Of a stretch of 64,000 nt of DNA, positions 17,656-33,149 are shown piece by piece. Position 1 is the stretch's first letter, and each line of letters starts with the position of its first letter. A model generated the notes under the pieces. That model had not been told where the DNA came from, searched no databases, and saw only the letters and a program-made list of their open reading frames with translations. The DNA is from an uncultured Legionellales bacterium (lineage in GTDB: Bacteria > Pseudomonadota > Gammaproteobacteria > Eutrophobiales > Eutrophobiaceae). Location: contig CAJWRJ010000002.1 in assembly GCA_913046215.1 (NCBI GenBank), positions 5,950 through 69,949 of the forward strand. Direction: 5' to 3'. The translations under genes were made by a program, and so were the position numbers.

Positions 17656-18264
17656 TTATTTTTTAAGTATTAGATAACTTCTTATTACGAAAAAATAGAA
17701 TATTGGCGCACCAATGGCTGCCGCAGTTATGAAGTAATATTCTAATTTATAATATGTAATGATTGGGAGAATATACAATGAATCCTCTGCTTCGAAACCA
17801 CTTTTGAATGGTTGACGGGCCTTATTTTTACCAATCTCTTTTTCGATTTTATTTCTTGTATAGAATATTGCTGCAACTGAAACACCAGCAACGATTCCTA
17901 TTGGTAGCGCATAAAAACCTAGACTGCTATGAATAAGGCCAATACTAATACCAATAAATAAAAATATATTAACAAGAGCATCAGAGATAAGGTCGTACGT
18001 ATGTCCTTTAATACTAGTTTCATTTTTTAATCTCGCTAACTCTCCATCAGCATGATCTAAAAAATTTGAAAACACAAAACAACACGCACCAGCATTACTG
18101 TATAAATATTCACCAATTGAAAAGAAAAACCCAGCTAAAAGTCCAAAAAATAATCTTAATGTTGTTAAATAATTGGGTGTAACGAAAGTATTACGAAGTG
18201 GATATATCAATCTATATGCGATTTGAGCATCCCATGGTCTACTATCTGATGGATCAATTAGCAT
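17656..18264 (-). CDS. CDP-alcohol phosphatidyltransferase family protein (paralog 1, between hpnN and hpnA)
   Basis: 202-aa polytopic protein with the complete catalytic motif D-x2-D-G-x2-A-R-x8-G-x3-D-x3-D (DHADGELARLKNETSIKGHTYDLISD). 6-bp gap to hpnN and 4-bp gap to hpnA. Confidence 0.8.
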   Translation of the reverse strand: MLIDPSDSRPWDAQIAYRLIYPLRNTFVTPNYLTTLRLFFGLLAGFFFSIGEYLYSNAGACCFVFSNFLDHADGELARLKNETSIKGHTYDLISDALVNIFLFIGISIGLIHSSLGFYALPIGIVAGVSVAAIFYTRNKIEKEIGKNKARQPFKSGFEAEDSLYILPIITYYKLEYYFITAAAIGAPIFYFFVIRSYLILKK

Positions 18265-18270
18265 TTTGCT

Positions 18271-20868
18271 TTATTTGTATGAAGAATCTCGCCATATCAA
18301 AAACGAGGGTAATACTATCATAGTTGCGAACATCATGGATATTAATCCCACTGATAAAAGTAATCCCATGCTTGCAGTGCCTTGATGTGATGAAAACGCA
18401 AGATTTCCGATACTAAATATTGTTGTTAGGCTACTTATAATGACACCCTTCATTGAGCTAGTTATATAAATATTAGTTTGTGTATTTTTTTCCTCATAGA
18501 ATCGCTCCGTAATATGAATACCACTATCAACGCCAATTCCAAGTAGTAACGGAAGACCGATGATATTCGCAAAATTCAGGGGAATATTAAAGAAAAGCAT
18601 GAATCCCAATGTGAAAATACTACCTATTAATACGGAAATAAGAATAATAAGCGCATCATATTTTATTTTTATTAGAAGCATCAATAGTATTGCTATTGCA
18701 ATAAAAGCACATAAAAACGCGAATTTGAATGCACTTTTTACAGCATTTCCAGCTTCAATACTTATAATTGGAGAACCAATAACATCTTTATTGAAATCTT
18801 GAAGTTGATAAACAAAATTTCTCATTGATATATTATTATTTAAATCTTCCTTAGGTAAAATTTTTATTAAATATTTTTCATCACTTACCCATCTTTTATA
18901 AATTTCATCTGGAATATTATTAATCGTAACTTCTTCAGCATTTAATGCATCTGATAATGCTTTTATCCGTCCTGGAAAATTTTCTAAAAATTGATTTTCA
19001 ATAGCTTTAATTTTTTTATCATCATCATCATTTAAATTAGATAATAGATTATTCAAGTTGCTATTTAGTAAAATCATCTGATTATCAGAATTATGCACCA
19101 GATAGTTATCTAATATAGTTTTTAGTTTTTTTATAGCAGCTATTCTATGATTTTTACTTATCTCTAATTCAGACGATCTGTTTTCTAAATTACCCATCAA
19201 TAAGCTCATTTCATCAATAATAATGAGTTTATCATTTTGTTCTTCAGGAATAAGATTATGTATAGATATTGCATTATCAACTAGAGGTAATAATTTAATT
19301 TCATTCTTTTTCAGATTGGTTTGATCAGCAGATTCAACTATTAGTATCCCTTCCCAAGGTGATGTAGAGCTATCTTTAAGTAGTTCCTGATACGTTTTTA
19401 CTGATTCATTTTTAGGATCTTGCAGATTTAATCTATTTTCATCGAAATCTATTTTATTTATGAATAATAAAATAAAAGAAACTATTAAAAATATAAATAT
19501 GAGAATAATTTTTGAATATTTATACGGTAACCAGCATAAAAAATTTATAATATTATTATTTTTTATAATATTAGCAGATCTTAGTGTTTTAATTGATGTA
19601 TAGCTTAGTAATGCAGGTAACAATGTTATGGTTAGGATAAAGCTAATTATCATTCCAGATCCTGCTATCCATCCAAGTTCAGCGACACCTGTATAGCTTG
19701 TTGGTATAAATGCATAAAATCCAATAGCCGTTGTTAAAGCACATAAGACTAGAGGTTTCATTATAAATTTTAATGTGTTTTTAATAATCTTAGTGCGATT
19801 TAACTCGGAAATAGATTCTTCTCTATATCTAAGGGCCATGTGTATTGCAAAATCAATTCCCAATCCGATATATAATACAGCGAATGCTATAGATATTAGA
19901 TTTAAAGTTCCAACTGTAATTGAAGCGAAGGCAGTTGTTATTATTAACCCAACTATAAGTGTCGTAAGGCAAGCTACTACAATACGAAAGGAACCAAGAC
20001 CAATGGTTAAAATAGTTGCGACGAGAATAATCGATAGAAAAATTGCTTTTATATTTGCGTTAGACACACTTTTTAGTTCTTCATAAGCTAAAACCTCGCC
20101 TCCTGTTAATTTGATATTAACTTTCGAATTTTTATATGGTTCTATAGCTTTTCGTATATATTCAATAGTATTTTCATTAGGTAATAGACTGTCATCAATT
20201 GTATTTATTTGTAGTTCAATAAATTCCCTATATGTATTCTTTTTTTCATATTTTGGATCCATTAATCTTTGCCATGAAACTGAATAATTTATATCACCGA
20301 ACGCAAGATTTATTTCAGATAGTATTGGATTTAATTGAATAGATTTATCATCTTGTTTAGCTTCAATAGCATCTCCGAGCATATCAAATAATCCACGTAA
20401 ATTTCTATCTTCAAGTAATGATCCTAAAAAAGGTTGAATTTTAGCGAGATTATCAGATAAGTCTTGTAATTCATCGTGTTCAAGAAATAGAAATGAAGAT
20501 TCCTTGAAGTAGGAAAAATCACTTTGATAGTAGATATTTTTTATGAAATTATTATTTTTTAATGAGGTAGAAATTTTTTGAGCAGTATCACTTGCTAAAT
20601 CTGGTGTTTGAGCTTCAATAACAATGATAATGTTATCTAAAAATTGTGGAAATAATTTTTCATACTGGATATCAAGCTGCCTCCAGTGTAACTTTTCCGA
20701 CAACATCTCACTGGTGTCTGTACTAAAACTTAAATTATTCTTAATAGTACTTAATGATAATATTGTAATTAGAGTGACAGAGAATATTATTAGAATTCTT
20801 CTTTTATCTAGAAACCTGCTCCAGAATGAAACAAGCCTTTCATTACGATATGTATTTTTTTTATTCAC
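18271..20868 (-). CDS. hpnN: hopanoid-associated RND/MMPL-family transporter
   Basis: 865 aa with two 6-TM bundles and large periplasmic loops (MMPL/RND topology). Embedded in the hopanoid operon. Confidence 0.75.
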   Translation of the reverse strand: MNKKNTYRNERLVSFWSRFLDKRRILIIFSVTLITILSLSTIKNNLSFSTDTSEMLSEKLHWRQLDIQYEKLFPQFLDNIIIVIEAQTPDLASDTAQKISTSLKNNNFIKNIYYQSDFSYFKESSFLFLEHDELQDLSDNLAKIQPFLGSLLEDRNLRGLFDMLGDAIEAKQDDKSIQLNPILSEINLAFGDINYSVSWQRLMDPKYEKKNTYREFIELQINTIDDSLLPNENTIEYIRKAIEPYKNSKVNIKLTGGEVLAYEELKSVSNANIKAIFLSIILVATILTIGLGSFRIVVACLTTLIVGLIITTAFASITVGTLNLISIAFAVLYIGLGIDFAIHMALRYREESISELNRTKIIKNTLKFIMKPLVLCALTTAIGFYAFIPTSYTGVAELGWIAGSGMIISFILTITLLPALLSYTSIKTLRSANIIKNNNIINFLCWLPYKYSKIILIFIFLIVSFILLFINKIDFDENRLNLQDPKNESVKTYQELLKDSSTSPWEGILIVESADQTNLKKNEIKLLPLVDNAISIHNLIPEEQNDKLIIIDEMSLLMGNLENRSSELEISKNHRIAAIKKLKTILDNYLVHNSDNQMILLNSNLNNLLSNLNDDDDKKIKAIENQFLENFPGRIKALSDALNAEEVTINNIPDEIYKRWVSDEKYLIKILPKEDLNNNISMRNFVYQLQDFNKDVIGSPIISIEAGNAVKSAFKFAFLCAFIAIAILLMLLIKIKYDALIILISVLIGSIFTLGFMLFFNIPLNFANIIGLPLLLGIGVDSGIHITERFYEEKNTQTNIYITSSMKGVIISSLTTIFSIGNLAFSSHQGTASMGLLLSVGLISMMFATMIVLPSFLIWRDSSYK

Positions 20869-20909
20869 TTCAAATCAATTAGTTTATTTTGTAGGAATTT
20901 ATTCTAGAT

Positions 20910-21659
20910 TTAAACTTTAAAAATATATTCTTTATTAGGGTTACGTTCAATATCAGGAGGATAGCTAAGACGTTTATCAGAATAGTACTTTTCGCGACTA
21001 TCGCCTTCCGACATTGCATTATATGTTACATAGAGCACTCTTCTTTTAACATGAGTTAGATTTGGCCCAGAGCGATGCGGTGCGTATGAATCAAAAAATA
21101 TAGCATCACCGGGTTCTGTTTGTACGGGTTTGTAATCAAGCGCATTTTCCTCAAGGGGCGCCCATTGCTCTCCAATTAAACCTTTATCATGATGATTGGC
21201 AGCTATTTCAAGACATCCATTTTCAGTATTTGAGGCATCAATAGTTACTAATGCTGTAATATGTAGCTTTGCATACTTGTCCCATCCTGCCTGAACATCC
21301 TGATGAGCCTTAAATCCATCACCACCTGGCATTTTAAAATTTATTTTATCCTTGAATAGAATTGCATTTTCTCCAAATAGTTCAGATGTTATGTTTTGAA
21401 TTTTTCCAGATATGAAAAGCTCACTAAAACCTTTATGAAAGGGTTCTAAATTTTCCATACGCGATAGTATTCGTTTTTTTTCATTAATCTTACTTTGTTC
21501 AAAATACATCATATATTTATTTTTAATCTCAGGATAATTTGCAACCTCATCAACCCATTGTGTGATCTCATTCAGTTCTTCTCCGTAGTACAATTTACGT
21601 ACTATTAAAAAACCAGTATTTTTGAAGTTTTGAATTTGTTTATTAGATAATCTCATCAT
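20910..21659 (-). CDS. phytanoyl-CoA dioxygenase (PhyH)-like Fe(II)/2-oxoglutarate-dependent oxygenase
   Basis: 249 aa with a PhyH-like layout. Candidate H-x-D...H facial triad (HQD ... APHRSG). Lies between hpnG and hpnN in the same operon. Confidence 0.55.
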   Translation of the reverse strand: MMRLSNKQIQNFKNTGFLIVRKLYYGEELNEITQWVDEVANYPEIKNKYMMYFEQSKINEKKRILSRMENLEPFHKGFSELFISGKIQNITSELFGENAILFKDKINFKMPGGDGFKAHQDVQAGWDKYAKLHITALVTIDASNTENGCLEIAANHHDKGLIGEQWAPLEENALDYKPVQTEPGDAIFFDSYAPHRSGPNLTHVKRRVLYVTYNAMSEGDSREKYYSDKRLSYPPDIERNPNKEYIFKV

Positions 21660-21674
21660 AAAATTTTAATAAAT

Positions 21675-22397
21675 TTATAATTTATTATATATAAAAAAAT
21701 CTCTTTTCTTAAATTCATCATACATATTATTTAATGATGATAATGACTTAATATAGCTCTTTATTAGGGAGATTAATTGAAATAATTGAAATGGATTTTG
21801 TAATGATGATTTTAAAAAACTTTTTATTTTAATTTTTCCGAAGTTATCAATATTTTCTAAAAATATAGATGGTATATTTGAATATGCATCATCTATTATC
21901 ACACGCGCTGATACAAATTTTATTTTTTTTTCAAGAGAAATTTTAGCTATAGCTGCACTTTCCATATCAACTGCTAATGCTTTTGTTTGGTTTGATAATT
22001 CCCTTTTTTTAATTGATGAATCAAGAATTTTATTAGTTGTCACAATTTTGCCATTTAATACTTTGTATGGTGTAGTCTGAAGATGGGAACTGATAGAGTT
22101 TCTCCATTCATTCGAAGTATAAAATATTTCTTTATCATTTTGTATAGTATCAGCTAGAACGATATCACCTGTTTTTAGTGATTGATCTATACCTCCTGCC
22201 ATTCCCCAACTTATCAATCCATCTATATTTTTTTTAACTAACTCCTTCGCTGCTGATGTTGCAGCATCAAATCCAATTCCGGATATGTATAAAAAAATAT
22301 TCTTTTCAATTTGTATTGATTCTTTCAGAGCTAATTTTTTTAACCGAAAGCATTTTGCTTCAGATGGTATAGCTATAATAATTCCAATTCTTTTCAA
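21675..22397 (-). CDS. hpnG: hopanoid-associated nucleoside phosphorylase/nucleosidase (PNP/UDP family)
   Basis: 240-aa PNP_UDP_1-like fold (GIIIAIPSEA ... GMAGGI). Immediately downstream of shc with a 1-bp gap. Confidence 0.7.
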   Translation of the reverse strand: MKRIGIIIAIPSEAKCFRLKKLALKESIQIEKNIFLYISGIGFDAATSAAKELVKKNIDGLISWGMAGGIDQSLKTGDIVLADTIQNDKEIFYTSNEWRNSISSHLQTTPYKVLNGKIVTTNKILDSSIKKRELSNQTKALAVDMESAAIAKISLEKKIKFVSARVIIDDAYSNIPSIFLENIDNFGKIKIKSFLKSSLQNPFQLFQLISLIKSYIKSLSSLNNMYDEFKKRDFFIYNKL

Positions 22398-22398
22398 G

Positions 22399-24342
22399 TT
22401 ACTTTTCTAATATGTTTCGATATCGAGCAAGCGCCCAAAGAGGAAAATATTTCGAATAGCCATGATATTTTAAATAAAAGACACGGGGAAATCCTGGCGC
22501 TGTAAATGAATTGTCATACCATTGCCCGTTTGATAATTGAGTCGATAGCAGATAATTTACTGCTTTTTTAACAGACGGATTTTTTTCCTCTCTGGATGCT
22601 AATAGCGAGAGCAACACCCATGCAGTCTGAAAAGCGGTACTTTTGAATGGCCTATGTATTTTAGGAGGATAATAACTGTCATTGCTTTCACCCCATCCCC
22701 CATCATCATTCTGAGTAGAAACAAGATATTTGACGGCTTTACGAATATAGTCTTGTTGTGGATCTTGTCCTGCAATCTCAAGAGCGGTCAGTACTGACCA
22801 AGTACCATATATATAATTAGTACCCCAACGACCAAACCAAGAACCATTTTCCTCCTGCTCAGTTTTGAGATATTCAATTGCGCTATTGATTTGTTTTTCA
22901 TACATCTCTACATCAGCTAGACTTAATAGAGCTATTGCTCGTCCGGTTACGTCTGCAGTAGGGGGGTCAAGTAAAGCACCGTGATCTGCAAATGGAATTT
23001 CATTAAGATAATAATGTGTATTATCGGTATCGAACGAACCAAAACCACCATTTCGAGACTGCATACCAGCAACCCAGTTAGCAGCACGATCTATTGATTT
23101 AGAATATATGTTCTTTTTTGTTCTATGCATAGCCCATGCAACGACCGATGTATCATCTAAGTCAGGATAATAATAATTGCTATATTGAAAAGCCCAACCA
23201 CCACCAGCTAATTCTGGTTTTTGTATACGCCAGTCACCGGGTTCATTACTTAACTGACGTTCTTTAAGCCAATCCAGTGCATTTTTAATTTCCGTTGTTG
23301 TATTTTTTTCATTTTCAGTTTCTATTAAGGCATGACTTACTAGCGCGGTATCCCATATAGGCGACATACAAGGCTGGCAATACATTGATGTTCCGTTATC
23401 TTTCAATAATGAATCAATTGCTTGACGAGCTAACTTTCTTTTTGGATCACTTTTTGGGTATCCAAGTACAACTAACGATTCATATACATTAACCATTGCA
23501 GGAAAAATACCACCAATACCGTGTTTTTCATTCATCCTTGCTAAAAACCATTGCTCACATTTTCTTATAGAATATTGTCGTATAAATTTAGGAACTAATT
23601 TTTCAGCTAAACGTCCGAAACGATCAAGAACCAAAAATGCACGTTTTAGAGGTGTTGTTACTTTAAAATAGTTTAATTCATCTTCTGGAGGCGTAATAAA
23701 TAATTCTCTTATATCAATACCTCTTGGATTAGATGCTTTTGGTTTCATTGTGCACAAAACAAATAAAGGCACCATGACAGTACGAGACCAATAGGAGACT
23801 TTGTTAATATGAAATGGAAACCACTTAGGTAAAATTATAACTTCAGCAGGTATAAAAGGTGTTGCTCTCCAAGGCACCTGTCCAAATAGTGCCATCGTGA
23901 TTCTCGTGAATACATTACACATTGCCGCACCACCATGATTTAAAATCATAGTTTTTGCACGAATCATATGTTCTTCATGAGGCTCATCACCTATTAGTTT
24001 TAAAGCAAAATAAACTTTAACAGAGCAACTTAAATCAAAATTACCTCCAGTGTATAAAGACCAGCCACCTTCTTCATTTTGTTGTGAACGTAAATATTCA
24101 GCTATTTTCTCTTCTTTATCGTTATCAATTTCCCCAGTGAAGTGGTTCATTAAAATATATTCAGCAGGAATAGTGCAATCAGCCTCAAGCTCATATACCC
24201 AATGACCATCATTAGATTGTTTTGACAGTAGGTTTTTTTTAGCAGAATTAATTGCTTTATTTAAGCTTAACGTGAAGTCTTTATTGCGTATATTATTAGC
24301 AGACTGGCTGAGCAAGCTCTCGTTTTGATTATCTAATGTCAT
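22399..24342 (-). CDS. shc: squalene-hopene cyclase
   Basis: 647 aa. DxDDTA catalytic motif present as DLDDTS. Multiple QW repeats (QNEEGGW, QSRNGGFGSF, QEENGSWFGRW, QNDDGGWGE, QLSNGQW). Confidence 0.92.
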   Translation of the reverse strand: MTLDNQNESLLSQSANNIRNKDFTLSLNKAINSAKKNLLSKQSNDGHWVYELEADCTIPAEYILMNHFTGEIDNDKEEKIAEYLRSQQNEEGGWSLYTGGNFDLSCSVKVYFALKLIGDEPHEEHMIRAKTMILNHGGAAMCNVFTRITMALFGQVPWRATPFIPAEVIILPKWFPFHINKVSYWSRTVMVPLFVLCTMKPKASNPRGIDIRELFITPPEDELNYFKVTTPLKRAFLVLDRFGRLAEKLVPKFIRQYSIRKCEQWFLARMNEKHGIGGIFPAMVNVYESLVVLGYPKSDPKRKLARQAIDSLLKDNGTSMYCQPCMSPIWDTALVSHALIETENEKNTTTEIKNALDWLKERQLSNEPGDWRIQKPELAGGGWAFQYSNYYYPDLDDTSVVAWAMHRTKKNIYSKSIDRAANWVAGMQSRNGGFGSFDTDNTHYYLNEIPFADHGALLDPPTADVTGRAIALLSLADVEMYEKQINSAIEYLKTEQEENGSWFGRWGTNYIYGTWSVLTALEIAGQDPQQDYIRKAVKYLVSTQNDDGGWGESNDSYYPPKIHRPFKSTAFQTAWVLLSLLASREEKNPSVKKAVNYLLSTQLSNGQWYDNSFTAPGFPRVFYLKYHGYSKYFPLWALARYRNILEK

Positions 24343-24398
24343 TTTTATTATTTATTATAGGTTTTTATTTGTTCACAAACCTTTTTCGAGAGATATTC

Positions 24399-25454
24399 TT
24401 AAAGTTTCTCATGAATATTAACTCTAGGCAAATGTCGCCCAGTAAGTTTAATAAGAAATCTCAATATAGCATCATTTTTTACGAAAATGCTTGTAATTAG
24501 AATGGTTAATTTTACACTAAGATGACTAATTTTTACTTCTTTTCCATTGGTAAAATTTGGGTTTTTTCTAATTTTTTCCAGCGTTAACACGGCCATTCCA
24601 ATAGCCCATAAGCAGAATTTACGCAAACCTATTTCATTTTTTGGGATCAATAAAGTATAAGTCAATGCATTTTCAAGGTGAGCATATGCAACTCCCAATA
24701 ATTCAATTAATGCATTATTAAATTCATTTATATTCTGATTAGGTTTTTTAGTGCTTATGTCAATACCATATTTTTTAAAATGATCTTTTGGTAGCCAACA
24801 TGCTCCCCTACTATGATCTTCCCAAATATCCTTCAGGATATTTGTCATTTGTAATCCTTGCCCAAACGAAACAGCTAGCTCCATTAATTTTTTTTGATTT
24901 TTATCAATATCAGTTGAATAATCACAAAATAACTCAGTTAACATTTCACCCACAACCCCAGCTACATGGTAGCAATAATCATTCATGTCTTTTATATTCT
25001 TTAATCCATTTAATGATTCCTCGATTTGATATTTAGCCATACCCTTACACATAATTGAAACGCAACGATTTAAGGCACTTAATTGTCGCTTGTTAAAACT
25101 ATGTGTTACACGGATAACTTTTTCTGTATTAGCAATTAAGTTATGTTCTGCATCAGTTGCATTTGGTGAGAGTATATCGAATAGTTTTTTAGAAAAAATA
25201 TTAACATTTTTATTATTTCTTACTACATCAATAAACATATCAGCGTACTCTTTCTTTTGTTCAATAGACATTGATTTATCATCTTCAATTGAATCTGCTA
25301 TTCGACAAAGAAGGTATGCATTAGATACAACCAGTCTTAATTTCTCTGGTAATTGGGGTATTGTAAGAGCAAATGTACGGGAAACATGTTGTAATATCAT
25401 ATGTTGGTAAGCAACATCATCCGGAACTGTGTTAAACTCTTGCGTGGATTTCAT
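24399..25454 (-). CDS. sqs: squalene synthase (single-enzyme, eukaryote-type farnesyl-diphosphate farnesyltransferase)
   Basis: 351-aa isoprenoid_synt_type2 enzyme with VSRTFALTIPQLP (the SQS SRSF-type motif) and Asp-rich ADSIEDD. First gene of the operon ending in hpnA. Confidence 0.8.
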   Translation of the reverse strand: MKSTQEFNTVPDDVAYQHMILQHVSRTFALTIPQLPEKLRLVVSNAYLLCRIADSIEDDKSMSIEQKKEYADMFIDVVRNNKNVNIFSKKLFDILSPNATDAEHNLIANTEKVIRVTHSFNKRQLSALNRCVSIMCKGMAKYQIEESLNGLKNIKDMNDYCYHVAGVVGEMLTELFCDYSTDIDKNQKKLMELAVSFGQGLQMTNILKDIWEDHSRGACWLPKDHFKKYGIDISTKKPNQNINEFNNALIELLGVAYAHLENALTYTLLIPKNEIGLRKFCLWAIGMAVLTLEKIRKNPNFTNGKEVKISHLSVKLTILITSIFVKNDAILRFLIKLTGRHLPRVNIHEKL

Positions 25455-25565
25455 ATTTACAAGTTTTAATTTTTAATAAGAAACATGCACACATTAATAT
25501 AAGTATAGAAATTAGGCAAAGAGTATTTTGATAAAGCTAGTGATTTCAGTATAAAAAATTAATAA

Positions 25566-26300
25566 ATGAATATATATAATTTAAATAATAATGAAATTGA
25601 TCTCTCCACAAAGAATATTTATGTTCTATTATTAAATTTTTCCATGTTAAATTATCAAGATTACATGACATATTTATCTGATGATGAAATACAAAGAGTT
25701 GATAACATAAATAATAAAATTAAAAAAAATCAATTTGTTATTTCTAGAGCCATTGTAAAGAAGCTATTATCGAAATATTTGAGTAAAATACCAAATCAAA
25801 TTGAATTCTCATACAACAAACATGGAAAACCATTTGTACCTGAAAAATATAATAATCATAGTTTAGAGTTTAATATTTCACATTCAGATATATATGGATT
25901 AATAGCAATTACATTAGACAATAAGATAGGTGTTGATATACAAAGGGTTAATCATGACATTAATATAGATTCATTATCTGAACGTTTCTTTAGTGAAGAT
26001 GAAAAAGAACAATTAATGAAATTTGATAAAAATAAAAGAGCAGATGTTTTCCATAATTGCTGGGTTAAAAAGGAATCATTTATTAAAGCAATTGGATCAG
26101 GTGTAGCATATGGTCTTGATAATTTTAGTGTCTCATTAGAGGAAAACCATCGTAATTATGTCTTAGATTTAAAAAATAAAAAATGGTACTGTTATAAATT
26201 AATTGAATTTGAAAATTACAAAACTGCTTTAACAATGGAAACAAAATCTAATATTTTTCTATCATATAAAGAAAATTATATCAGTAATATTCTGCACTAA
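25566..26300 (+). CDS. Sfp/EntD-type 4'-phosphopantetheinyl transferase
   Basis: Motifs GKPFV, IGVDIQ and W-x-x-KES-x-x-KA-x-G (WVKKESFIKAIGSG). Confidence 0.75.
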   Translation: MNIYNLNNNEIDLSTKNIYVLLLNFSMLNYQDYMTYLSDDEIQRVDNINNKIKKNQFVISRAIVKKLLSKYLSKIPNQIEFSYNKHGKPFVPEKYNNHSLEFNISHSDIYGLIAITLDNKIGVDIQRVNHDINIDSLSERFFSEDEKEQLMKFDKNKRADVFHNCWVKKESFIKAIGSGVAYGLDNFSVSLEENHRNYVLDLKNKKWYCYKLIEFENYKTALTMETKSNIFLSYKENYISNILH

Positions 26301-26306
26301 AAATAA

Positions 26307-27101
26307 TTGAGTATATCTAGTATGAAAAATACTACGCATAATTGGTATGACCTTCCAACATATTATGACGTTTCATTTTCATATGATATGAAAGATGAAT
26401 TGTCCTTTATTAGTAACGTATTTAGAAAATATTTAATATTGAATTCACCAAAATTGCTCGAGCCAGCATGTGGAACAGGACGTTTAATTGTCCCATTGGT
26501 AAAAAAAGGATTTAATTGTTCTGGATTTGATTTAAATGAAAATGCATTATTATATTTAAAAGAAAAACTTAATCGTAATAATTTGTATGCAAATATAAAG
26601 AAAGCTGATATGTCTACTTTTGAAGTAGAGAATAAATATGATGGAATTTATTGTACAGTCGATACATTTCGACATCTTCTTACGGAAAAAAAAGCAATAC
26701 AACACTTAGAAAATGTTTCGTTCGCACTAAAGAAAAATGGCATATATATATTAGGATTACATATAATTCCTAGACATAAAAAAATTGAAAAAATAGTCAA
26801 GTGGACTGCAAGAAGAGGTTCTTTAACAGTTAAAACAATCATGTCAATGATAAAGCTTGATATGAAAAGAAGAAGAGAGACATTGAGGGTAGTCTTAAAA
26901 ATTAAAAAAAATACTACTAGAGAATCCTATGTATCTATATATCAGTTAAGGACATATACATTGCCTCAGATATTAAACATAATAAATAAAGTAGAGGATT
27001 TAGAAATTATCAATACCTACAATGAGTACTATGATTTATCTAGTCCAATAATTTTAAATTCTGACTCAGATTATGCTGTATTCTTACTTCGTAAAAAGTA
27101 A
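26307..27101 (+). CDS. class I SAM-dependent methyltransferase
   Basis: Motif I LEPACGTGRL and an acidic motif II (GFD). 264 aa. Confidence 0.7.
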   Translation: MSISSMKNTTHNWYDLPTYYDVSFSYDMKDELSFISNVFRKYLILNSPKLLEPACGTGRLIVPLVKKGFNCSGFDLNENALLYLKEKLNRNNLYANIKKADMSTFEVENKYDGIYCTVDTFRHLLTEKKAIQHLENVSFALKKNGIYILGLHIIPRHKKIEKIVKWTARRGSLTVKTIMSMIKLDMKRRRETLRVVLKIKKNTTRESYVSIYQLRTYTLPQILNIINKVEDLEIINTYNEYYDLSSPIILNSDSDYAVFLLRKK

Positions 27102-27111
27102 CTCTCGCAAG

Positions 27112-27699
27112 CTAATTAGTTATTTTTTTTAATAAATAATATGTAAATATTGCAAATATAGGAGCACCTACCGATGCACCGATGAGAAAAGGAAGATGCC
27201 AGTTTAACCAAACTATCGGGGCAAAAAGATATATGATATCGTCGAAATCAAAACCAGCTATTCCTGTGTATGCTTTTTCTCCTGTGGCTCTCTTTTTTTG
27301 ATCTATTTTTTCAGCAAAAATCTCAGAAAAAATTACGCCAATACACGCAGACAAACCCATCATTATTGTCAGATAGTTAGGTAATTTATCTTGTAGGCCT
27401 ATCCCGATTGCTAGAAAAAAAAGTGCCGTAATAAAAGTGTCAGTGTAATAGTCAAATTTATGACCTAAAGAACTAATATTTCCAGAGATTCTAGCAAGCT
27501 CTCCATCAGCTCTATCAAGAAAAGTTGATATTATCCACATTACACCACCCAAAATATTCATTTTTAATGCAAAAGCAACACATGCTGCCAATCCTATTAT
27601 TAGCCTTAAAAGTGTGACGTGATTTGGAGTGATAGGCGTATTGACTAACGGTTTAATACATACTCGAGCAATCTTATGAGTCCAAGAGTCACCAATCAT
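27112..27699 (-). CDS. CDP-alcohol phosphatidyltransferase family protein (paralog 2, last gene of hpnI-J-K operon)
   Basis: 195 aa. Full catalytic motif DRADGELARISGNISSLGHKFDYYTD. Shares N-terminal ITPNxxTLLRL and C-terminal GAPIF segments with paralog 1. 2-bp gap after hpnK. Confidence 0.8.
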   Translation of the reverse strand: MIGDSWTHKIARVCIKPLVNTPITPNHVTLLRLIIGLAACVAFALKMNILGGVMWIISTFLDRADGELARISGNISSLGHKFDYYTDTFITALFFLAIGIGLQDKLPNYLTIMMGLSACIGVIFSEIFAEKIDQKKRATGEKAYTGIAGFDFDDIIYLFAPIVWLNWHLPFLIGASVGAPIFAIFTYYLLKKITN

Positions 27700-27701
27700 T
27701 T

Positions 27702-28433
27702 TTATGAGTTGAAGCCCGAAAGTTCAATATTAAATTTTTCGATAGTTCTTTTTATTCGAGCGTGTATAAGGGCTTTGTATTCTTCAACAAACTCGTAGTT
27801 ATAAAGTGTATTATCATTTTCTGTTGAGGGGTGAGTATAAATTTCAGTTATACCATCTTTTATATGCGGAATAATACGCACAAGTTTATCAATATTCATA
27901 TGCCCACTATCATGTAGACCATAAATATAATTGTTAAAAATAATCTTATTGTTTTTACATTTTTTCTCCATTTGATATGTAAATATCGAAAAAAATAACC
28001 ATCTAATATATCTCATAAAAAATTCTTTTTTATTATAAATAATTGAATTAAGAGGAGGTTCATTTGGAATACGGATGGCTGTTAAATTATACTCCCTTCC
28101 AATTTCTATAATTAAATTAAATATAGTTGGGTGAAGGTGCATATGATTATGTGCATTTACATGATCTAGTTTTAAACCTGTTTTTTTAAATGCTTTAAAT
28201 TGCGCCCGTATTTCTTTTTTTAGTTCAGATCTCGCTTTGTTATTGAAAAAATAATTTACTCCACACCAAAATTTATTATTACTAAACTCACATTTACTAT
28301 TTACCAAATTTGGTATTTCGACAATTGGTAATGAAGATTTCCCATTAGATAGTACAATATGCAAACCTACGTTTAATTCAGGATTTTTTTTTGCAATTTT
28401 TACTGCATGGCTGGCTTCTGGTGCAGCAATCAT
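27702..28433 (-). CDS. hpnK: hopanoid-associated YdjC-family deacetylase HpnK (annotated from first ATG; the true N-terminus very probably extends ~35 codons upstream to a CTG at 28538, see findings)
   Basis: YdjC-like core. The in-frame upstream sequence encodes the family's catalytic N-terminus KKVIVTGDDFGLSVPVNNAILKSFTNGILTTTSL, which aligns to ChbG LLIVNADDFGLS...GIVTSTT. Confidence 0.7.
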   Translation of the reverse strand: MIAAPEASHAVKIAKKNPELNVGLHIVLSNGKSSLPIVEIPNLVNSKCEFSNNKFWCGVNYFFNNKARSELKKEIRAQFKAFKKTGLKLDHVNAHNHMHLHPTIFNLIIEIGREYNLTAIRIPNEPPLNSIIYNKKEFFMRYIRWLFFSIFTYQMEKKCKNNKIIFNNYIYGLHDSGHMNIDKLVRIIPHIKDGITEIYTHPSTENDNTLYNYEFVEEYKALIHARIKRTIEKFNIELSGFNS

Positions 28434-28534
28434 TAGGCTTGTTGTTGTTAATATCCCATTCGTGAAGGATTTTAATATGGCATTGTTTACAGGAACTGAA
28501 AGACCAAAATCATCACCCGTAACAATTACTTTTT

Positions 28535-29956
28535 TCAGACTGTATTCTCCCGTCCAAACAAGAATTTGAAAAATTCAACACCTTCTCTTAGTCTGCGTTT
28601 CATAATTTCCCAATCTTTGCACATTTCAAAAAATAGTATAACCATTTTTTTTGGCCTAAAATAAAAACGTTTATAGAAATTATCAACTGCTTCAAAAATT
28701 TCTTTACTTGAAAGATGTGGATAATTGAGTATTGAGTGTTGAACTCCATCACTACCAACTAAATCATCATCCGCAACTAACCAACCATTTTCAACTGCCT
28801 GATTATATAAGTAAGTTCCTGGATAGGCGGCAGGGAGTGATACCTGTATTGTTTGTGGGTTTAACTCTTGTGCATATTTTATCGTCTCTTCTATAGTTTC
28901 ATTTGTTTCGCCTGGCAAACCCACAATAAATGTTCCATGAATAAGAATTCCCAGTTTATGACAATCTCTTGTGAATTGTCTTGCTATATCAAGCCTTATG
29001 CCTTTTTTTATATTTACTAATATATCTTGATTTCCAGATTCATATCCAACTAGCAGCAAACGCAAACCATTATCTTTCATAATTTTTAGTGTTTCATATG
29101 GGACATTTGCTTTCGCATTACAAGACCATGTAATACCAAGTTTTCCAATTTCTTTTGCAAGAGCTTCAACATGAGAAATATTGTCGGTCAATGTGTCATC
29201 ATCAAAAAAGAATTCTTTAATTTCAGGAAAGTTATCACGCGCCCATAATACTTCTGCAGCAATATTTTCCACAGAACGTGTCCGGTAATTATGTCCAGAG
29301 ATTGTTTGAGGCCATAAACAAAAAGAGCAACGAGATTTACAACCTCGACCCGTATAAAAGGACATATAAGGGTGAAGCATATAGCCATTAAAATAATCAG
29401 TAGTAGTAAGATGTTTTTTATAAACTTTAGTAACCCATGGAAGACTATCCATATTTTCAATCATTGCACGAGGTTTATTATGTATAACAACTCCATTTTT
29501 TTTATAGGTTAATCCATCTATATTTTCTATTATTTTCCCTTCTGCTACTTCTTTAATCGTAAAATCAAATTCATTTCCAGCAACAAAGTCAATTGCATCT
29601 GAAGCAAGAATTGAGTGATCTGGATTAACTGCTACATGCGCACCACAAAAACCAATAATAAGATTTTTGTTTTCATGTTTTAGTGCTTCAGCAATGCGTA
29701 CATCATTAGGAAATGAGGGAGTGCTTGTGTAGAGAACTATTAATTCATAATCTTTAGCTAGAGGTAGAATATCTTCAAGTGAAGTACCTCTTGCTGGCGC
29801 ATCTATTAATTTACTTCCTTCAATTAATGCAGCTAATTGTGCAAGCCATGTTGGATACCAAAAAGATTTAACTTCACGCGTACATTGATAACGTGAACCT
29901 GCACCTCCATCAAAGCCGTTATAGGATGGCGGATTTAAAAAAAGTGTTTTTAACAT
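28535..29956 (-). CDS. hpnJ: hopanoid-associated B12-binding radical SAM protein HpnJ
   Basis: 473 aa. N-terminal cobalamin-binding-like domain followed by a radical-SAM CxxxCxxC (GCKSRCSFC). Its size and domain order fit HpnJ rather than the shorter HpnH. Confidence 0.75.
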   Translation of the reverse strand: MLKTLFLNPPSYNGFDGGAGSRYQCTREVKSFWYPTWLAQLAALIEGSKLIDAPARGTSLEDILPLAKDYELIVLYTSTPSFPNDVRIAEALKHENKNLIIGFCGAHVAVNPDHSILASDAIDFVAGNEFDFTIKEVAEGKIIENIDGLTYKKNGVVIHNKPRAMIENMDSLPWVTKVYKKHLTTTDYFNGYMLHPYMSFYTGRGCKSRCSFCLWPQTISGHNYRTRSVENIAAEVLWARDNFPEIKEFFFDDDTLTDNISHVEALAKEIGKLGITWSCNAKANVPYETLKIMKDNGLRLLLVGYESGNQDILVNIKKGIRLDIARQFTRDCHKLGILIHGTFIVGLPGETNETIEETIKYAQELNPQTIQVSLPAAYPGTYLYNQAVENGWLVADDDLVGSDGVQHSILNYPHLSSKEIFEAVDNFYKRFYFRPKKMVILFFEMCKDWEIMKRRLREGVEFFKFLFGRENTV

Positions 29957-29978
29957 ATTATCATTAATTCAGTTTGTG

Positions 29979-31208
29979 TTATGTATCTTGAGGTGAAATA
30001 GTGTCAGTTGTTTTATTTTCACGGTTTTTCTCTGATGAAATTATTTTTTCATCATGCATTAAACCTAGATGATCAACAGCGAATTTATTTTTACGCCACT
30101 CCACGGAATTTCCAGCATAACTCAATATTCTTATAAAAAAGGTTAGTGTATCTCGTAGCGGAATTAACCATATTTTTCCAACTCTCCCCGAATCTGTAAC
30201 TTCATTAGTTTTAGAATACATATATACTCTTATAATAAGGGTTATAAATATAGGAAATAAAAATAATACAAAACTATTACCTATCACATAAAGTGAAGTC
30301 CCAGCAAAAATGCTCAAAATTAAACTATCCGTTAAAAAAGTGAGAGCATAACCATAAGGCTCTACTCGTCTAAGTGTTCTTGCCCAACGTAGTTCATGTA
30401 AAATTAAATTTTTAAACGAGGATTCCTCAACTACATTCTTCACGATACAGTTCGATAAATGAATTTTATAGCCAATATTAGATATTAGTTTTCCTAACAT
30501 GTAGTCATCAGCTAGATGATTTGATAATGCTTCAAATCCACCAATTTTATGAAGAATACTTCGTCTTACTATCATTGTAGCACCTAGACAATACTCTATA
30601 GGTTTTATCATTTTTGATATTAATACCGATGGTAGAAACCAGTTATTTATGAACATTGTATTTAACATAGATGTTATTTTTTTTGTAGCTGATCCAAAAT
30701 AAAGACAAGTAATAGCACCAGTATTAGGATCGTCAAATGGTTTTATCACTTGAGATAGATAGTTTTCGTTAACCTGCATGTCACTATCAGCGATAAGCAT
30801 AAATTCATACTTTATTGAAGGACACATGTTTATCAAATTTGATACTTTATGATTTGTTCCATGTCGTTCCGTATTTATTATGAAACTTATATCAACATCA
30901 TTCAGCTCTTTTATAATCTTTTTTACTATAGGTAACGCTTCATCATTAACATCTTGCAATCCAAAAATAATTTGGTATTTCGGGTAATTTTGTTGACAAA
31001 AGCTCTTTAGATTTATGTACATTTCCGGATCAAGCCCATAAATCGGTTTTAATATACTAATTGGAGGCTGGAATTTCTTATCGTCTGAAAATGTATTTTT
31101 GTTCTTAAAAATTGAAATAGCTACTAAACCAGCGAATAGATATCCTAAGGAGAAGATCCAAAGTGATATTGATGCCATTAACAATATGTTGAGAAAATCA
31201 ATTTGCAT
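29979..31208 (-). CDS. hpnI: hopanoid-associated family-2 glycosyltransferase
   Basis: 409 aa with an N-terminal TM, GT2 fold, DxD (ADSDMQ) and a C-terminal TM region. First gene of the hpnI-J-K operon. Confidence 0.65.
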   Translation of the reverse strand: MQIDFLNILLMASISLWIFSLGYLFAGLVAISIFKNKNTFSDDKKFQPPISILKPIYGLDPEMYINLKSFCQQNYPKYQIIFGLQDVNDEALPIVKKIIKELNDVDISFIINTERHGTNHKVSNLINMCPSIKYEFMLIADSDMQVNENYLSQVIKPFDDPNTGAITCLYFGSATKKITSMLNTMFINNWFLPSVLISKMIKPIEYCLGATMIVRRSILHKIGGFEALSNHLADDYMLGKLISNIGYKIHLSNCIVKNVVEESSFKNLILHELRWARTLRRVEPYGYALTFLTDSLILSIFAGTSLYVIGNSFVLFLFPIFITLIIRVYMYSKTNEVTDSGRVGKIWLIPLRDTLTFFIRILSYAGNSVEWRKNKFAVDHLGLMHDEKIISSEKNRENKTTDTISPQDT

Positions 31209-31379
31209 ACGTCAATTTTACTCTTTTAGCACCATTTGAAAAATGAGATGTGTTTGTATTTGCACCAATAACTATTAGTAAGTTATTACATGTATAAGAT
31301 ACTATAATATATTGATTTTAACTAATTTATGCAAATTCCTGTTAATTATACCAATTATCTCAATTTAAGAAACAGCAAA

Positions 31380-32354
31380 TTATTCGCTTTTTCGTAGGTA
31401 ATTCATTTCTATGTATTGCCAATAAAGCAATCCAGGAAGATCTATTATTATTTCTCTTATTCGGGTTGCTAAAGACAGGGCAAGAGAAAATTCTGGTGTT
31501 AAACCAATTAAAACTCCCAGCATAAGATAACCACCTTCTTGGACACCGTAACCATTAGGTATTATAAATGCTAGGTCGGTTATGATAGAAGTTAAGCTTT
31601 TAAGCATCAAAGCTTCAAACAAACTAATTGGGTGGCCAAGTAGATAACAAGCCAACCAGACCTCCGATGTCTGCAAAATCAATCCTAGAGTTCGCCACAG
31701 AATAGATACAAAAAATCTTTTTTTATCATTATAAATGTCTTTAACAAGCAGATCTATATCGGTTGCTTTAAGTGTTATTTCACCCCAATCTGTCGTGTTA
31801 TTGTACTTACCAATAATGTTTGCGAAAAAACTAAATATTCCTGCCCGTTGGACAAATATAAAGCCAGCTAAACCTAATCCTAGTAAAAAAGTACCCAACA
31901 TTATGTACATTGCTAATTCATTATCAATTGCAAGAAAAATTAATAAGGCAGTACCAATAATCGCCCATGGTATTAGTGCTAATGCTTGTACGGTTTTATC
32001 TACAAGTACAGACGCACATACATTTTTTGCTGGTCTTCCCCATAAAATTAATAGACGTGCTTTCGCGATTTCCCCGCCTATCGTTGCAACAGGTAAAATA
32101 GTATTTATGGCTCTTCCTATCCACAATGACAAAAATAATTCTTTAAAGGGAGGGATTGTCTTTTTTGGAAATAAGTAATACCACGATATTACAGCAACAA
32201 CAAAACTAGGTAGCCAAACTATCGGCAGAGAGAGCAATAACAAACCAGATTTAGATAATAAATCTAGAATTTCATCAAATCCTTGCCAAAAAATAAGCAA
32301 GGTAAGTACGAAAAGACCAAGTACTAAACCAATGAATGATAGTGTTCTAATCAT
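31380..32354 (-). CDS. hpnL: HpnL-like polytopic membrane protein (UPF0104 / lysyl-PG-synthase TM-region-like)
   Basis: 324 aa with ~8 TM. Located between the hpnIJK operon and CDP-alcohol phosphatidyltransferase paralog 3. Confidence 0.5.
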   Translation of the reverse strand: MIRTLSFIGLVLGLFVLTLLIFWQGFDEILDLLSKSGLLLLSLPIVWLPSFVVAVISWYYLFPKKTIPPFKELFLSLWIGRAINTILPVATIGGEIAKARLLILWGRPAKNVCASVLVDKTVQALALIPWAIIGTALLIFLAIDNELAMYIMLGTFLLGLGLAGFIFVQRAGIFSFFANIIGKYNNTTDWGEITLKATDIDLLVKDIYNDKKRFFVSILWRTLGLILQTSEVWLACYLLGHPISLFEALMLKSLTSIITDLAFIIPNGYGVQEGGYLMLGVLIGLTPEFSLALSLATRIREIIIDLPGLLYWQYIEMNYLRKSE

Positions 32355-32471
32355 GTTTTATATAATAGGAAAGATGCTTGTAAATTACCGTTTTATTTTT
32401 ATCAACTAACACTTAGAATAGCAAGCGAGACAAAATGATACTATATAATTGATAAAACATAGTTAATTATC

Positions 32472-33149
32472 ATGAACACTAAAATAAAAAAATATCCTAC
32501 CCAGATATTCCCTTTAGTTAGGCACTTATCTTATCGACTAACCCCTTTTTTGTTAAAAACCTCCATCACACCCAACCAAATAACACTCTTATCACTAATA
32601 TTTGGTTTGTTATGTGGATTCTGTTTTATCATTGGCTCATATTATCTTCAAATAGTTGGAGCTTTATTCTTCATCATTAGTTATGTGCTAGATAACTGTG
32701 ACGGTGAAATTGCTCGAATAAAAGACATGTCATCTGAGTTTGGTGCAAAATTTGATGACATTGTTGATTGGGTTGTCGATGCATTTTTCTTTATATCACT
32801 CGGGTATGGCGTTAGTGAAGTGAGCGGTCATAGTTTTTGGTTTTTTTTGGGTATTATTGCGGCATCCGGAGCATTTATTGATTACATTATAGATTTACGT
32901 TACCACGCTAGAAACGAATCAAATTCAGTCACTAGAGAGCAACAAGCCAAACAAAAAAAGATACCTGAAAATAAAATTGATTGGCTGATATATATATTCC
33001 ATAAATTGAGTCGTGCTGATTTTTGCTTTATTGTTTTTATACTAACGTTGTTCAATTTAATATATATATTACTCCCATTCGCTGCAATAGGCGCACAGGT
33101 TTATTGGATAACAGATCTATTTGAAAGAGCAAGAGGTTATAAGACCTAG
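32472..33149 (+). CDS. CDP-alcohol phosphatidyltransferase family protein (paralog 3, divergent from hpnL)
   Basis: 225 aa. Full catalytic motif DNCDGEIARIKDMSSEFGAKFDDIVD. N-terminal ITPNQITLLSL as in paralogs 1 and 2. Confidence 0.8.
   Translation: MNTKIKKYPTQIFPLVRHLSYRLTPFLLKTSITPNQITLLSLIFGLLCGFCFIIGSYYLQIVGALFFIISYVLDNCDGEIARIKDMSSEFGAKFDDIVDWVVDAFFFISLGYGVSEVSGHSFWFFLGIIAASGAFIDYIIDLRYHARNESNSVTREQQAKQKKIPENKIDWLIYIFHKLSRADFCFIVFILTLFNLIYILLPFAAIGAQVYWITDLFERARGYKT

Follow-up and report, generated by a model that had tools for sequence, protein, structure and literature searches.

Hopanoids are major lipids of bacterial membranes and serve as key biomarkers in geology; for many composite hopanoids, no biosynthetic route is known. 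Two hopanoid studies of 2025 describe the functions of HpnL and HpnA as unknown and include no phosphotransferase step; one of them proposes an amino-acid transfer for HpnL, and neither mentions CDP-alcohol phosphotransferases (CDP-OH enzymes) or phosphonates (PMC12324291, PMC12583986). Among the gene neighborhoods of ppm, which encodes phosphoenolpyruvate (PEP) mutase, the largest family is 'Burkholderiales_CDP-OH', which comprises 318 of 882 ppm neighborhoods (36% of RefSeq neighborhoods) and includes Burkholderia pathogens (Li & Horsman 2022, PMC8942020). There, it was equated with the Group 1 phosphonolipid clusters of Yu et al. 2013, and a 1-hydroxy-2-aminoethylphosphonate (1-hydroxy-AEP) lipid was predicted for it; its product was never characterized as a conventional phosphonolipid, and Burkholderia-dominated cluster families are prevalent and show ppm expression, yet conventional phosphonolipids are uncharacterized from them (PMC8942020). 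The same work states in one sentence that the squalene synthase and cyclase genes of a Nitrosococcus cluster 'hint at a possible phosphonoterpene', citing an antiSMASH 'phosphonate-terpene' call (GCF 731; Wang et al. 2020, PMC7285500). Here we analyzed a 64-kb stretch of DNA from an uncultured Legionellales bacterium (the window), in which three genes encoding CDP-OH enzymes lie among hopanoid (hpn) genes. The three paralogs belong to three ancient orthogroups of a specialized branch, and the family shows conserved adjacency to hpn genes and to genes of 2-aminoethylphosphonate (AEP) biosynthesis.

The three open reading frames (ORFs) are the following:

17656-18264, minus strand, paralog 1 (CDP1), a CDP-alcohol phosphotransferase of 202 amino acids, between hpnN and hpnA
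27112-27699, minus strand, paralog 2 (CDP2), a CDP-alcohol phosphotransferase of 195 amino acids, at the end of hpnI-hpnJ-hpnK
32472-33149, plus strand, paralog 3 (CDP3), a CDP-alcohol phosphotransferase of 225 amino acids, divergent from hpnL

The window is AT-rich (GC content of about 32%). According to Pfam, paralogs 1, 2, and 3 match PF01066 with 52.4, 48.2, and 56.3 bits, respectively, above the gathering cut-off of 22, a profile search that had been suggested in an initial annotation of this DNA. Each protein shows one exact D-x2-D-G-x2-A-R-x8-G-x3-D-x3-D motif, at residues 70-95 in paralog 1, 62-87 in paralog 2, and 74-99 in paralog 3, and its D, G, A, and R positions are invariant in the 38 homologs aligned. 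Pairwise BLASTP among the three proteins gives 31-36% identity with E-values of 1e-13 to 5e-25 (for a database size of 1e9 residues). A C-terminal GAPIF is common to paralogs 1 and 2; paralog 3 has GAQVY instead. Paralog 1 is separated by 6 bp from hpnN and by 4 bp from hpnA, paralog 2 lies 2 bp from hpnK, and hpnL and paralog 3 diverge from a spacer of 117 bp. The initial annotation had described three non-degenerate paralogs at these coordinates and strands, each with a complete motif, the first two sharing GAPIF, placed next to hpn genes with gaps of 6, 4, and 2 bp; re-measurement of the spacing and curated models of the neighbors agree with it in all these respects. The three ORFs are intact CDP-alcohol phosphotransferases, for which the catalysis of the superfamily, a divalent-cation-dependent transfer that releases CMP, is predicted from the sequence. 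Only paralog 1 was modeled with AlphaFold (AF2), with a pLDDT of 89.9. The model shows an N-terminal helix followed by six long helices (11-25, 30-50, 53-79, 85-109, 116-144, 159-171, and 175-201), so predicted paralog 1 matches the juxtamembrane N-terminal helix and six-transmembrane-helix fold of the CDP-OH superfamily.

Relatives were collected by a locus scan with one genome per GTDB species, which provided 80 loci out of 416 confirmed relatives (more than 600 pattern matches), and a bootstrapped neighbor-joining tree of 132 family members was generated on an alignment built from tblastn coordinates. The CDP1 orthogroup shows the order hpnN-CDP1-hpnA in 11 of its 12 sequences (10 of 11 relative loci and the window), and CDP1 forms, together with the CDP-OH of Burkholderiales-type AEP clusters, a clade of 27 members with 88% bootstrap. 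In the CDP2 orthogroup (12 sequences, 100% bootstrap), nine members, from both Gamma- and Alphaproteobacteria, immediately follow hpnK; the CDP3 orthogroup contains 19, also with 100% bootstrap, and adjoins hpnL, hpnN, or hpnM in the same two classes. The nearest of the 80 loci belongs to a 'Legionellales bacterium' metagenome-assembled genome (MAG) with the gene order of the window, and relatives at 54-67% identity show hpnN-CDP1-hpnA with overlapping stop and start codons and also keep CDP3 divergent from hpnL-hpnI-hpnJ-hpnK-CDP2. In marine metagenomes, each paralog has hundreds of relatives at 60-78% identity. The assembly collection contains the exact paralog 1 protein in 169 blocks, and those listed are ENA/Tara Oceans marine metagenome contigs, of up to about 67 kb, with the same neighborhood.

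A tblastn census with the hpn proteins of the window shows hpn neighbors in Gammaproteobacteria, in Betaproteobacteria (Janthinobacterium, and Mycetohabitans among the PLSDB replicons) and in Alphaproteobacteria (many Rhodospirillales, Skermanella aerolata, and Magnetovibrio). In Cupriavidus sp. IDO, in one Chloroflexota MAG and in some 'delta' MAGs, HpnL is encoded without any other hpn gene in view; the neighbors of the CDP-HpnL pairs in 'delta' and Chloroflexota MAGs (sulfatase, sulfotransferase, MerR, pirin, and GST) are uninformative. In PLSDB, shc is also present on 13 of the 14 replicons with a CDP1 homolog, a count that is phylogenetically confounded. The arrangement of the trio with hpn genes recurs in dozens of genomes of several classes and is not due to chance. 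Such a census had been proposed in the initial annotation, and the hopanoid coupling claimed there is conserved in Gamma-, Alpha-, and Betaproteobacteria; however, it is not exclusive, given the AEP-only clusters and a marine trio in a metal-resistance island described below.

Clustering of all ORFs of the loci shows a second recurrent partner, a complete AEP pathway directly beside the family, which the initial annotation had missed. The recurrent neighbors encode a PEP mutase (Ppm) fused to an NTP_transf_3 nucleotidyltransferase (Ppm::NT; TIGR02320 381.6 bits, cut-off 319.55), a two-domain thiamine pyrophosphate enzyme of the phosphonopyruvate-decarboxylase type (Ppd), an Aminotran_5 AEP transaminase (AEPT), a stand-alone cytidylyltransferase (NTP3), for which NCBIfam gives the IPCT half of IPCT-DIPPS as the top match, and an Fe/2-oxoglutarate (2OG) oxygenase of HalD-like or PhyH type. 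In Rhodospirillales loci, orthologs of the PhyH protein of the window (45-53% identity) are encoded next to PEP mutase. Of the 41 loci with a length of 15 kb or more, 20 have hopanoid genes, 17 have Ppm, Ppd, or AEPT, nine have both and 13 have neither, and eight of the latter 13 still have HpnL, cytidylyltransferase, or oxygenase. Across the 80 loci, 69 show at least one partner (hpn, AEP, HpnL, cytidylyltransferase, or oxygenase). By orthogroup, AEP genes are found in 6 of 18 CDP3 loci and in none of 11 CDP2 loci. The gaps to CDP-OH are 3-47 nt from Ppd and 11-45 nt from the cytidylyltransferase NTP3.

Joint clusters make the linkage most apparent. Two gammaproteobacterial loci (L035 and L040) show ispB-sqs-(shc)-hpnG-(PhyH, in L035 only)-hpnN-CDP1-hpnA as in the window, followed on the same strand by NTP3-Ppm::NT-Ppd-AEPT. 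In a marine Rhodospirillales single-cell genome (L039), the order is hpnG, hpnH, ispH, hpnA, NTP3, PhyH, Ppm, Ppd, AEPT, CDP, CDP, hpnN, CDP3, hpnL, and hpnM. The megaplasmid pBRH01 of the cultured Mycetohabitans rhizoxinica HKI 454 contains hpnD-shc-...-hpnA-hpnH-ispH-hpnM-hpnN-dxs-AEPT-aepY-aepX-PntC-HpnL-2OG-CDP-OH as a contiguous cluster. HpnL-type proteins constantly accompany CDP-OH in AEP clusters and score 315-339 bits there with TIGR03476, in relation to 253.7 bits for the HpnL of the window; proteins with such scores and no hpn gene nearby are found in L017 (11168-12460), L021 (11346-12437), L031 (10698-11732), and L051 (3063-4103). Because the AEP-cluster copies outscore the HpnL of the window on this model, 'HpnL' and the membrane protein of phosphonolipid clusters are considered one family, which by its model scores is as much a phosphonate-cluster as a hopanoid protein.

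Some Gammaproteobacteria show a fourth, divergent CDP-OH directly after hpnA (L009, 11631-12158; L035, 11796-12281). In L035, it is followed by cytidylyltransferase and AEP genes, and L009 retains the fourth paralog without AEP genes, as if the AEP module had been lost or relocated step by step in the wider lineage of the window. In addition, an Omp85-family protein of about 446 residues is regularly encoded after AEPT or cytidylyltransferase (L020, L021, L022 at 3971-5311, L024, L032, L033, and L066); these Omp85-bearing CDP-OH clusters are gammaproteobacterial (Steroidobacteraceae and unclassified MAGs), and the neighbor suggests an outer-membrane destination of the product.

A family profile searched against 1.84 billion representative proteins matched 267 clusters (E <= 1e-30), of which the best 150 were inspected for fusions. 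Among these 150, seven proteins are CDP-OH::HpnL fusions, in both domain orders and three of them above the TIGR03476 cut-off, most being nearest to the paralog 2 orthogroup; two are CDP-OH::cytidylyltransferase fusions, one of which aligns across the whole IPCT-DIPPS model; one is a CDP-OH::HalD-like oxygenase and one a tandem CDP-OH. Furthermore, P0416 is a CDP-OH::HpnN fusion whose HpnN part scores 805.6 bits with TIGR03480 (cut-off 751.85) and is a genuine HpnN, and its CDP-OH domain is 59% identical to the copy after Ppd in L070. The fusions, which are metagenome gene calls, agree with the neighborhood evidence and occur in several independent architectures. In the high-GC loci L031 and L051, apparent long 'fusion' ORFs proved to be over-extended or out-of-frame overlaps and were rejected.

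To place the trio within the superfamily, it was compared with characterized CDP-OH enzymes. The top NCBIfam model for all three paralogs is AIPS (NF040950), with 55.3, 59.0, and 68.7 bits under a cut-off of 180; DIPPS (NF041135) gives 33-67 bits under a cut-off of 580, and PIPS (NF045883) 23-42 under 170. Scores for PgsA (TIGR00560 / NF008090) are 22.9, 21.7, and 24.8 bits, with a cut-off of 109.1, and for type II PssA (TIGR00473) 18.4, 20.7, and 29.3, with a cut-off of 107. According to Foldseek, the paralog 1 model is most similar to AF2299 (TM-score 0.78), followed by IPCT-DIPPS (0.70), PIPS (0.57-0.70) and CHPT1/CEPT1 (about 0.57-0.61), with 0.40-0.46 for PSS and PgsA (0.44 for PgsA, PDB 7DRJ). 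AF2299 and IPCT-DIPPS are also the closest solved structures by sequence, with E = 3.4e-17 between paralog 3 and AF2299 in the PDB search.

The best matches in sequence and fold are thus IPCT-DIPPS of Archaeoglobus fulgidus (PDB 4MND) and AF2299 (PDB 4O6M/4O6N). In the relatives, an IPCT-like cytidylyltransferase precedes CDP-OH or is fused to it, which reproduces the bifunctional architecture of IPCT-DIPPS. However, identity in the structural alignment is 21-23%, the DIPPS scores are far under 580, and the trio family has no inositol-phosphate context; because its partners are lipid flippase-like and lipid-exporter proteins, the expected product is a lipid and not a solute, unlike that of DIPPS. 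PIPS and AIPS share the signature motif and the six-helix fold, and the putative cyclitol acceptor of paralog 2 would be analogous, but the scores are far below the cut-offs and the fold similarity of 0.57-0.70 is under that of AF2299; moreover, these enzymes use a lipid donor (CDP-diacylglycerol or CDP-archaeol), and the cytidylyltransferase linkage argues against such a donor for the trio. The eukaryotic choline/ethanolamine phosphotransferases CHPT1, CEPT1, and EPT belong to the same superfamily and combine a soluble CDP/CMP-activated head group with a lipid alcohol, as proposed here. In ciliates, CMP-AEP:diacylglycerol transfer is tied to this eukaryotic type. CHPT1/CEPT1 are remote from the trio (sequence E = 0.08, besides the low fold score), have ten helices and use diacylglycerol as acceptor. 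The enzymes are new within a known superfamily; rather than a phosphatidyl group, they probably transfer a head group that a soluble cytidine nucleotide supplies (phosphonate-linked in the relatives).

The neighbors of the three genes in the window, from 16665 to 34309, are the following:

16665-17651, minus strand, hpnA, hopanoid-associated short-chain dehydrogenase/reductase (SDR)/epimerase (TIGR03466 474.7 bits, cut-off 367.65), 4 bp downstream of paralog 1
18271-20868, minus strand, hpnN, RND/MMPL hopanoid exporter (TIGR03480 785 bits, cut-off 751.85), 6 bp upstream of paralog 1
20910-21659, minus strand, PhyH-family Fe(II)/2-oxoglutarate oxygenase (PF05721 67.7 bits), between hpnG and hpnN
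21675-22397, minus strand, hpnG-like nucleoside phosphorylase (TIGR03468 166.6 bits, slightly under the cut-off of 187.1; PF01048 match)
22399-24342, minus strand, shc, squalene-hopene cyclase (TIGR01507 802.3 bits, cut-off 431.1)
24399-25454, minus strand, squalene synthase-like gene, SQS_PSY (PF00494 180.8 bits; TIGR01559 130 bits, below cut-off)
25566-26300, plus strand, Sfp/HetI-type phosphopantetheinyl transferase (Pfam/NCBIfam matches), convergent on paralog 2
26307-27101, plus strand, S-adenosylmethionine (SAM) methyltransferase (Pfam/NCBIfam matches), convergent on paralog 2
27702-28433, minus strand, hpnK, YdjC deacetylase (TIGR03473 258.6 bits, cut-off 232.6), 2 bp upstream of paralog 2
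28535-29956, minus strand, hpnJ, B12-binding radical SAM enzyme (TIGR03471 762.3 bits, cut-off 577.6)
29979-31208, minus strand, hpnI, glycosyltransferase (TIGR03472 381.5 bits, cut-off 310)
31380-32354, minus strand, hpnL, flippase-like PF03706 membrane protein (TIGR03476 253.7 bits, cut-off 195.65)
33155-34309, minus strand, polyprenyl synthase, IspB-like (octaprenyl-diphosphate synthase 396.5 bits, cut-off 412), convergent on paralog 3 with a 5-bp gap

Shc, HpnA, HpnN, HpnL, HpnI, HpnJ, and HpnK exceed the curated cut-offs, and HpnG is slightly under. The 64-kb window contains a single squalene synthase-like gene, with no second SQS_PSY gene (hpnC/hpnD), and has no hpnE, hpnH, or hpnM; the presence of hpnG, hpnI, hpnJ, and hpnK therefore implies hpnH elsewhere in the genome. 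The top NCBIfam match of the PhyH oxygenase is the methylphosphonate hydroxylase PhnY*, with 207.9 bits over the full length (cut-off 500), a PhnY*-like nature that the initial annotation overlooked; in the PDB, the oxygenase shows generic phytanoyl-CoA dioxygenase matches alone. The hpnK ORF encodes 243 residues and begins at position 36 of the 283-position HpnK model, and orthologs in L003 are called at 279 residues; since four independent Tara contigs give the same call, the short version is not an error specific to the window. The polyprenyl synthase is not hopanoid-specific, and its ORF is about 60 residues too long at the N terminus (orthologs have 335). A promoter and terminator scan of 16400-34700 gave fewer promoter-like sites than shuffled sequences and terminator-like sites within noise.

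The phosphopantetheinyl transferase and methyltransferase pair adjoins paralog 2 in L007, L010, and L090-L093 and lies within 5 kb of it in L003, where the pair adjoins an SDR and an AMP-binding enzyme. The methyltransferase of the window shows weak matches to amine and phospholipid N-methyltransferases, and no carrier protein is visible in the window; membership of these two proteins in the system is uncertain. On the other side of hpnA, a cluster related to Mrp antiporters and NADH dehydrogenase (11474-16660, plus strand) comprises Oxidored_q2, NADHdeh_related, and three Proton_antipo_M genes, and its position directly beside hpnA is kept in L001, L007-L010, and L090-L094, in relatives down to 59% identity. 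PCuAC and SCO1 genes are located at 10232-11330, about 5.3 kb from hpnA. In L094 (1-2757, contig P0066), the squalene synthase gene is directly preceded by genes for a polyunsaturated fatty acid synthase-like polyketide synthase of 2263 residues and for an enoyl reductase.

Comparison with the described clusters shows the closest likeness to 'Burkholderiales_CDP-OH'. Its CDP-OH falls in the 27-sequence clade of paralog 1, it has a TIGR03476 HpnL-type partner and an Fe/2OG oxygenase, both also present in the window, and the gammaproteobacterial relatives of the window L035 and L040 bear its whole AEP core after hpnA. The window differs in having no Ppm, Ppd, AEPT, or PntC, in its three paralogs versus one, interleaved with hpnN, hpnA, hpnI, hpnJ, and hpnK, and in an oxygenase that is PhyH/PhnY*-like and not HalD-like. 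The Nitrosococcus cluster is similar in that its AEP genes lie together with genes for squalene synthase and cyclase, for which a phosphonoterpene was speculated, but the connection of CDP-OH with HpnL and HpnN, the paralog structure and the breadth across classes are not described there. HpnI, HpnK, and HpnJ, together with HpnN, are encoded in operons in common with the trio at 2-6 bp spacing and carry out head-group elaboration in steps, with export afterwards, although the known hopanoid pathway contains no phosphotransferase. This absence had been pointed out in the initial annotation, and the 2025 papers indeed list no such step; its claim of an undescribed branch holds only in part, since the 'Burkholderiales_CDP-OH' family and the phosphonoterpene hint exist. 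Beyond these two, no characterization that combines hopanoids with CDP-alcohol phosphatidyltransferases, phosphonates, AEP, or phosphonolipids was found in the literature searched, and a marine phosphonate survey does not mention the lineage of the window. Earlier literature touched the phosphonate and hopanoid halves without joining them, and the product class predicted here would be new.

We tentatively propose, at somewhat less than an even chance, that the trio would perform the head-group-transfer step of a conserved accessory envelope-lipid module around the hopanoid genes, with a soluble CMP/CDP-activated donor and an extended hopanoid as acceptor. A PntC/IPCT-like cytidylyltransferase would couple a small polar head group to cytidine, giving a soluble activated nucleotide. 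In the relatives, this would be CMP-AEP or CMP-hydroxy-AEP, the head group being AEP that a PhnY*-like or HalD-like oxygenase probably hydroxylates at C1. Acting at the cytoplasmic face, each CDP-OH paralog would then attach the phosphonyl (or phosphoryl) head group to a membrane-lipid hydroxyl and release CMP. The most plausible acceptor would be an extended hopanoid: paralogs 1 and 3 would act on the side chain of bacteriohopanetetrol (BHT), and paralog 2 on what HpnI/J/K make, either glucosaminyl-BHT or BHT cyclitol ether. The product may be flipped by HpnL and exported to the outer membrane by HpnN, with HpnM where present. The full form of this proposal, possible but more doubtful, is that the products would be bacteriohopanepolyols, the cyclitol-ether branch included, with AEP, 1-hydroxy-AEP, or a related phospho head group, which would make them the first terpenoid phosphonolipid, with HpnL as flippase and HpnN as exporter, and also the product of the most common ppm cluster family.

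Several observations weigh against this proposal. The evidence for it is genomic context throughout, from which we infer the identity of the donor, the hopanoid acceptor, the roles of HpnL and HpnN and the synthesis or import of AEP in the genome of the window. The tree is neighbor-joining alone, with 56% support for the hpnN-CDP1-hpnA subclade, and the fusions are metagenome gene calls. In PLSDB, 40 shc-bearing replicons do not have the family, which is therefore considered an accessory branch. Ppm, Ppd, AEPT, and cytidylyltransferase are absent from the 64-kb window (tblastn, E <= 1e-3, with 26 Ppm::NT and the Ppd, AEPT, and NTP3 sets); the nearest relatives (L007-L012 and L094) show no AEP genes or cytidylyltransferase within 10 kb and have Mrp-type antiporter genes at the site of the AEP module of L035 and L040, and relatives P0066 and P0086 yielded no AEP genes for this lineage. 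The donor in the organism of the window could be encoded elsewhere, imported, or different.

The main rival keeps the soluble CMP/CDP donor, e.g., CMP-AEP, but takes diacylglycerol or a similar non-hopanoid alcohol as acceptor, so that glycerophosphonolipids or phospholipids would be made, co-regulated, co-flipped (by HpnL) and co-exported with hopanoids for a particular outer membrane, with no covalent bond to a hopanoid; we regard it as unlikely, though a serious contender. To our knowledge, all known natural phosphonolipids are glycerol- or sphingosine-based, and in eukaryotes, CDP-OH enzymes use CMP-AEP to place AEP on diacylglycerol. The literature searched gave no report of a bacteriohopanepolyol that contains phosphorus. 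AEP genes are present without hpn genes in 8 of the 41 long loci, the AEP/CDP-OH cluster of B. cenocepacia (L088) lies about 1.9 Mb from shc, and the trio is found without hpn neighbors in metal-resistance islands; all these points favor this rival and count against a hopanoid acceptor. 'Phosphonolipids' were also predicted for related clusters by Yu et al. 2013 and by Li & Horsman 2022 (PMC8942020). We nevertheless favor a hopanoid acceptor because of the operon positions with 2-6 bp spacing, the presence of shc on 13 of 14 PLSDB replicons with the transferase, confounded by phylogeny as it is, and features that transfer to diacylglycerol leaves unexplained: the specific coupling of paralog 2 to hpnI-J-K, after hpnK, in two classes, the fusion of a family member to a genuine HpnN, and dxs and ispH inside the joint cluster. 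Furthermore, the Burkholderia-dominated families have no characterized conventional phosphonolipid despite their prevalence and ppm expression.

A CDP-diacylglycerol donor with a hopanoid polyol or BHT cyclitol as acceptor, by analogy with PIP synthase, was the principal reading of the initial annotation and would give a phosphatidyl-hopanoid conjugate. We consider it improbable, its best case being paralog 2: the cyclitol of the BHT cyclitol ether resembles inositol and the 11 CDP2 loci have no AEP genes. Also in its favor, CDP-diacylglycerol is always available whereas the window has no cytidylyltransferase or AEP genes, and the best NCBIfam matches include PIP and AIP synthases. Nevertheless, AF2299 and IPCT-DIPPS are nearer in sequence and fold than the CDP-diacylglycerol enzymes, a dedicated cytidylyltransferase upstream or fused would be pointless, and nothing would be left for the PhnY*-like oxygenase of the window operon to do. 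We favor a soluble nucleotide donor because IPCT-DIPPS, an enzyme that works with a soluble CDP-alcohol, is among the closest relatives, and because cytidylyltransferases adjoin or are fused with CDP-OH genes. Thus, the earlier idea of a CDP-activated donor joined to a hopanoid retains its hopanoid side, through the conserved linkage and the HpnN fusion, while CDP-diacylglycerol becomes the weaker option for the donor. Slightly less probable still is a hopanoid-independent product for stress or metal tolerance, either a remodeled polar lipid or a DIPP-like soluble phosphodiester, the hpn position then reflecting shared envelope-stress regulation. In an abundant marine gammaproteobacterial lineage (L005, L006, L028, and L095), trio orthologs at 54-68% identity occupy about 6 kb of a Cu/Hg/Czc resistance region (P-II-like, multicopper oxidase, OEP, MerR/MerC, CzcB/ACR_tran, cation-efflux, and PEMT genes), with no hpn gene within 10 kb; L028 (3587-10576) and L095 (3583-10597) show all three orthologs, and the view of L005/L006 (9339-10684) shows paralogs 2 and 3 only. 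P0429, moreover, is a family member fused to a SCO1/SenC copper chaperone domain, and the nearest characterized enzyme, DIPPS, joins two soluble substrates. The metal-island loci and the SCO1 fusion also speak against the proposed hopanoid conjugate, and, together with the PCuAC and SCO1 genes of the window, they hint at a copper link. Against a stress or metal product, the HpnL and HpnN fusions point to a membrane lipid, the 2-6 bp gaps and overlapping stop and start codons put the genes within hpn operons across classes, and no inositol-phosphate synthase or similar solute gene was seen in the conserved neighborhood. Finally, ordinary housekeeping phospholipid synthases (PgsA, type II PssA, or cardiolipin synthase) placed near hpn genes by accident would fit the Pfam family and the presence of psd (9351-10208) 6.5 kb away. 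This explanation is effectively refuted: the pgsA, pssA, and cardiolipin synthase (ClsA) models give 16-29 bits versus cut-offs of 107-304, which rules out such an identity, the fold match to PgsA and PSS is poor, and the paralogs form three separate orthogroups with conserved hpn or AEP neighbors across classes. The initial annotation had itself named ordinary pgsA/pssA genes without conserved hpn linkage as the outcome that would overturn its claim, and this was not what we found.

The functions of hpnL and hpnA and the product of the largest PEP-mutase cluster family are two problems that the link between CDP-OH, AEP, HpnL, and HpnN joins. If a hopanoid is the acceptor, a phosphonate branch would be added to hopanoid tailoring and HpnL would be given a role, and the long-missing product of a ppm cluster family that includes Burkholderia pseudomallei and B. 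cenocepacia would be provided. Hopanoid producers would be tied to the marine phosphonate (C-P) pool, the abundant marine ones as a source of lipid-bound C-P phosphorus, and a new, chemically stable class of biomarkers would be predicted. If the acceptor is diacylglycerol, bacterial phosphonolipid synthases would have been identified all the same, built into hopanoid export systems.

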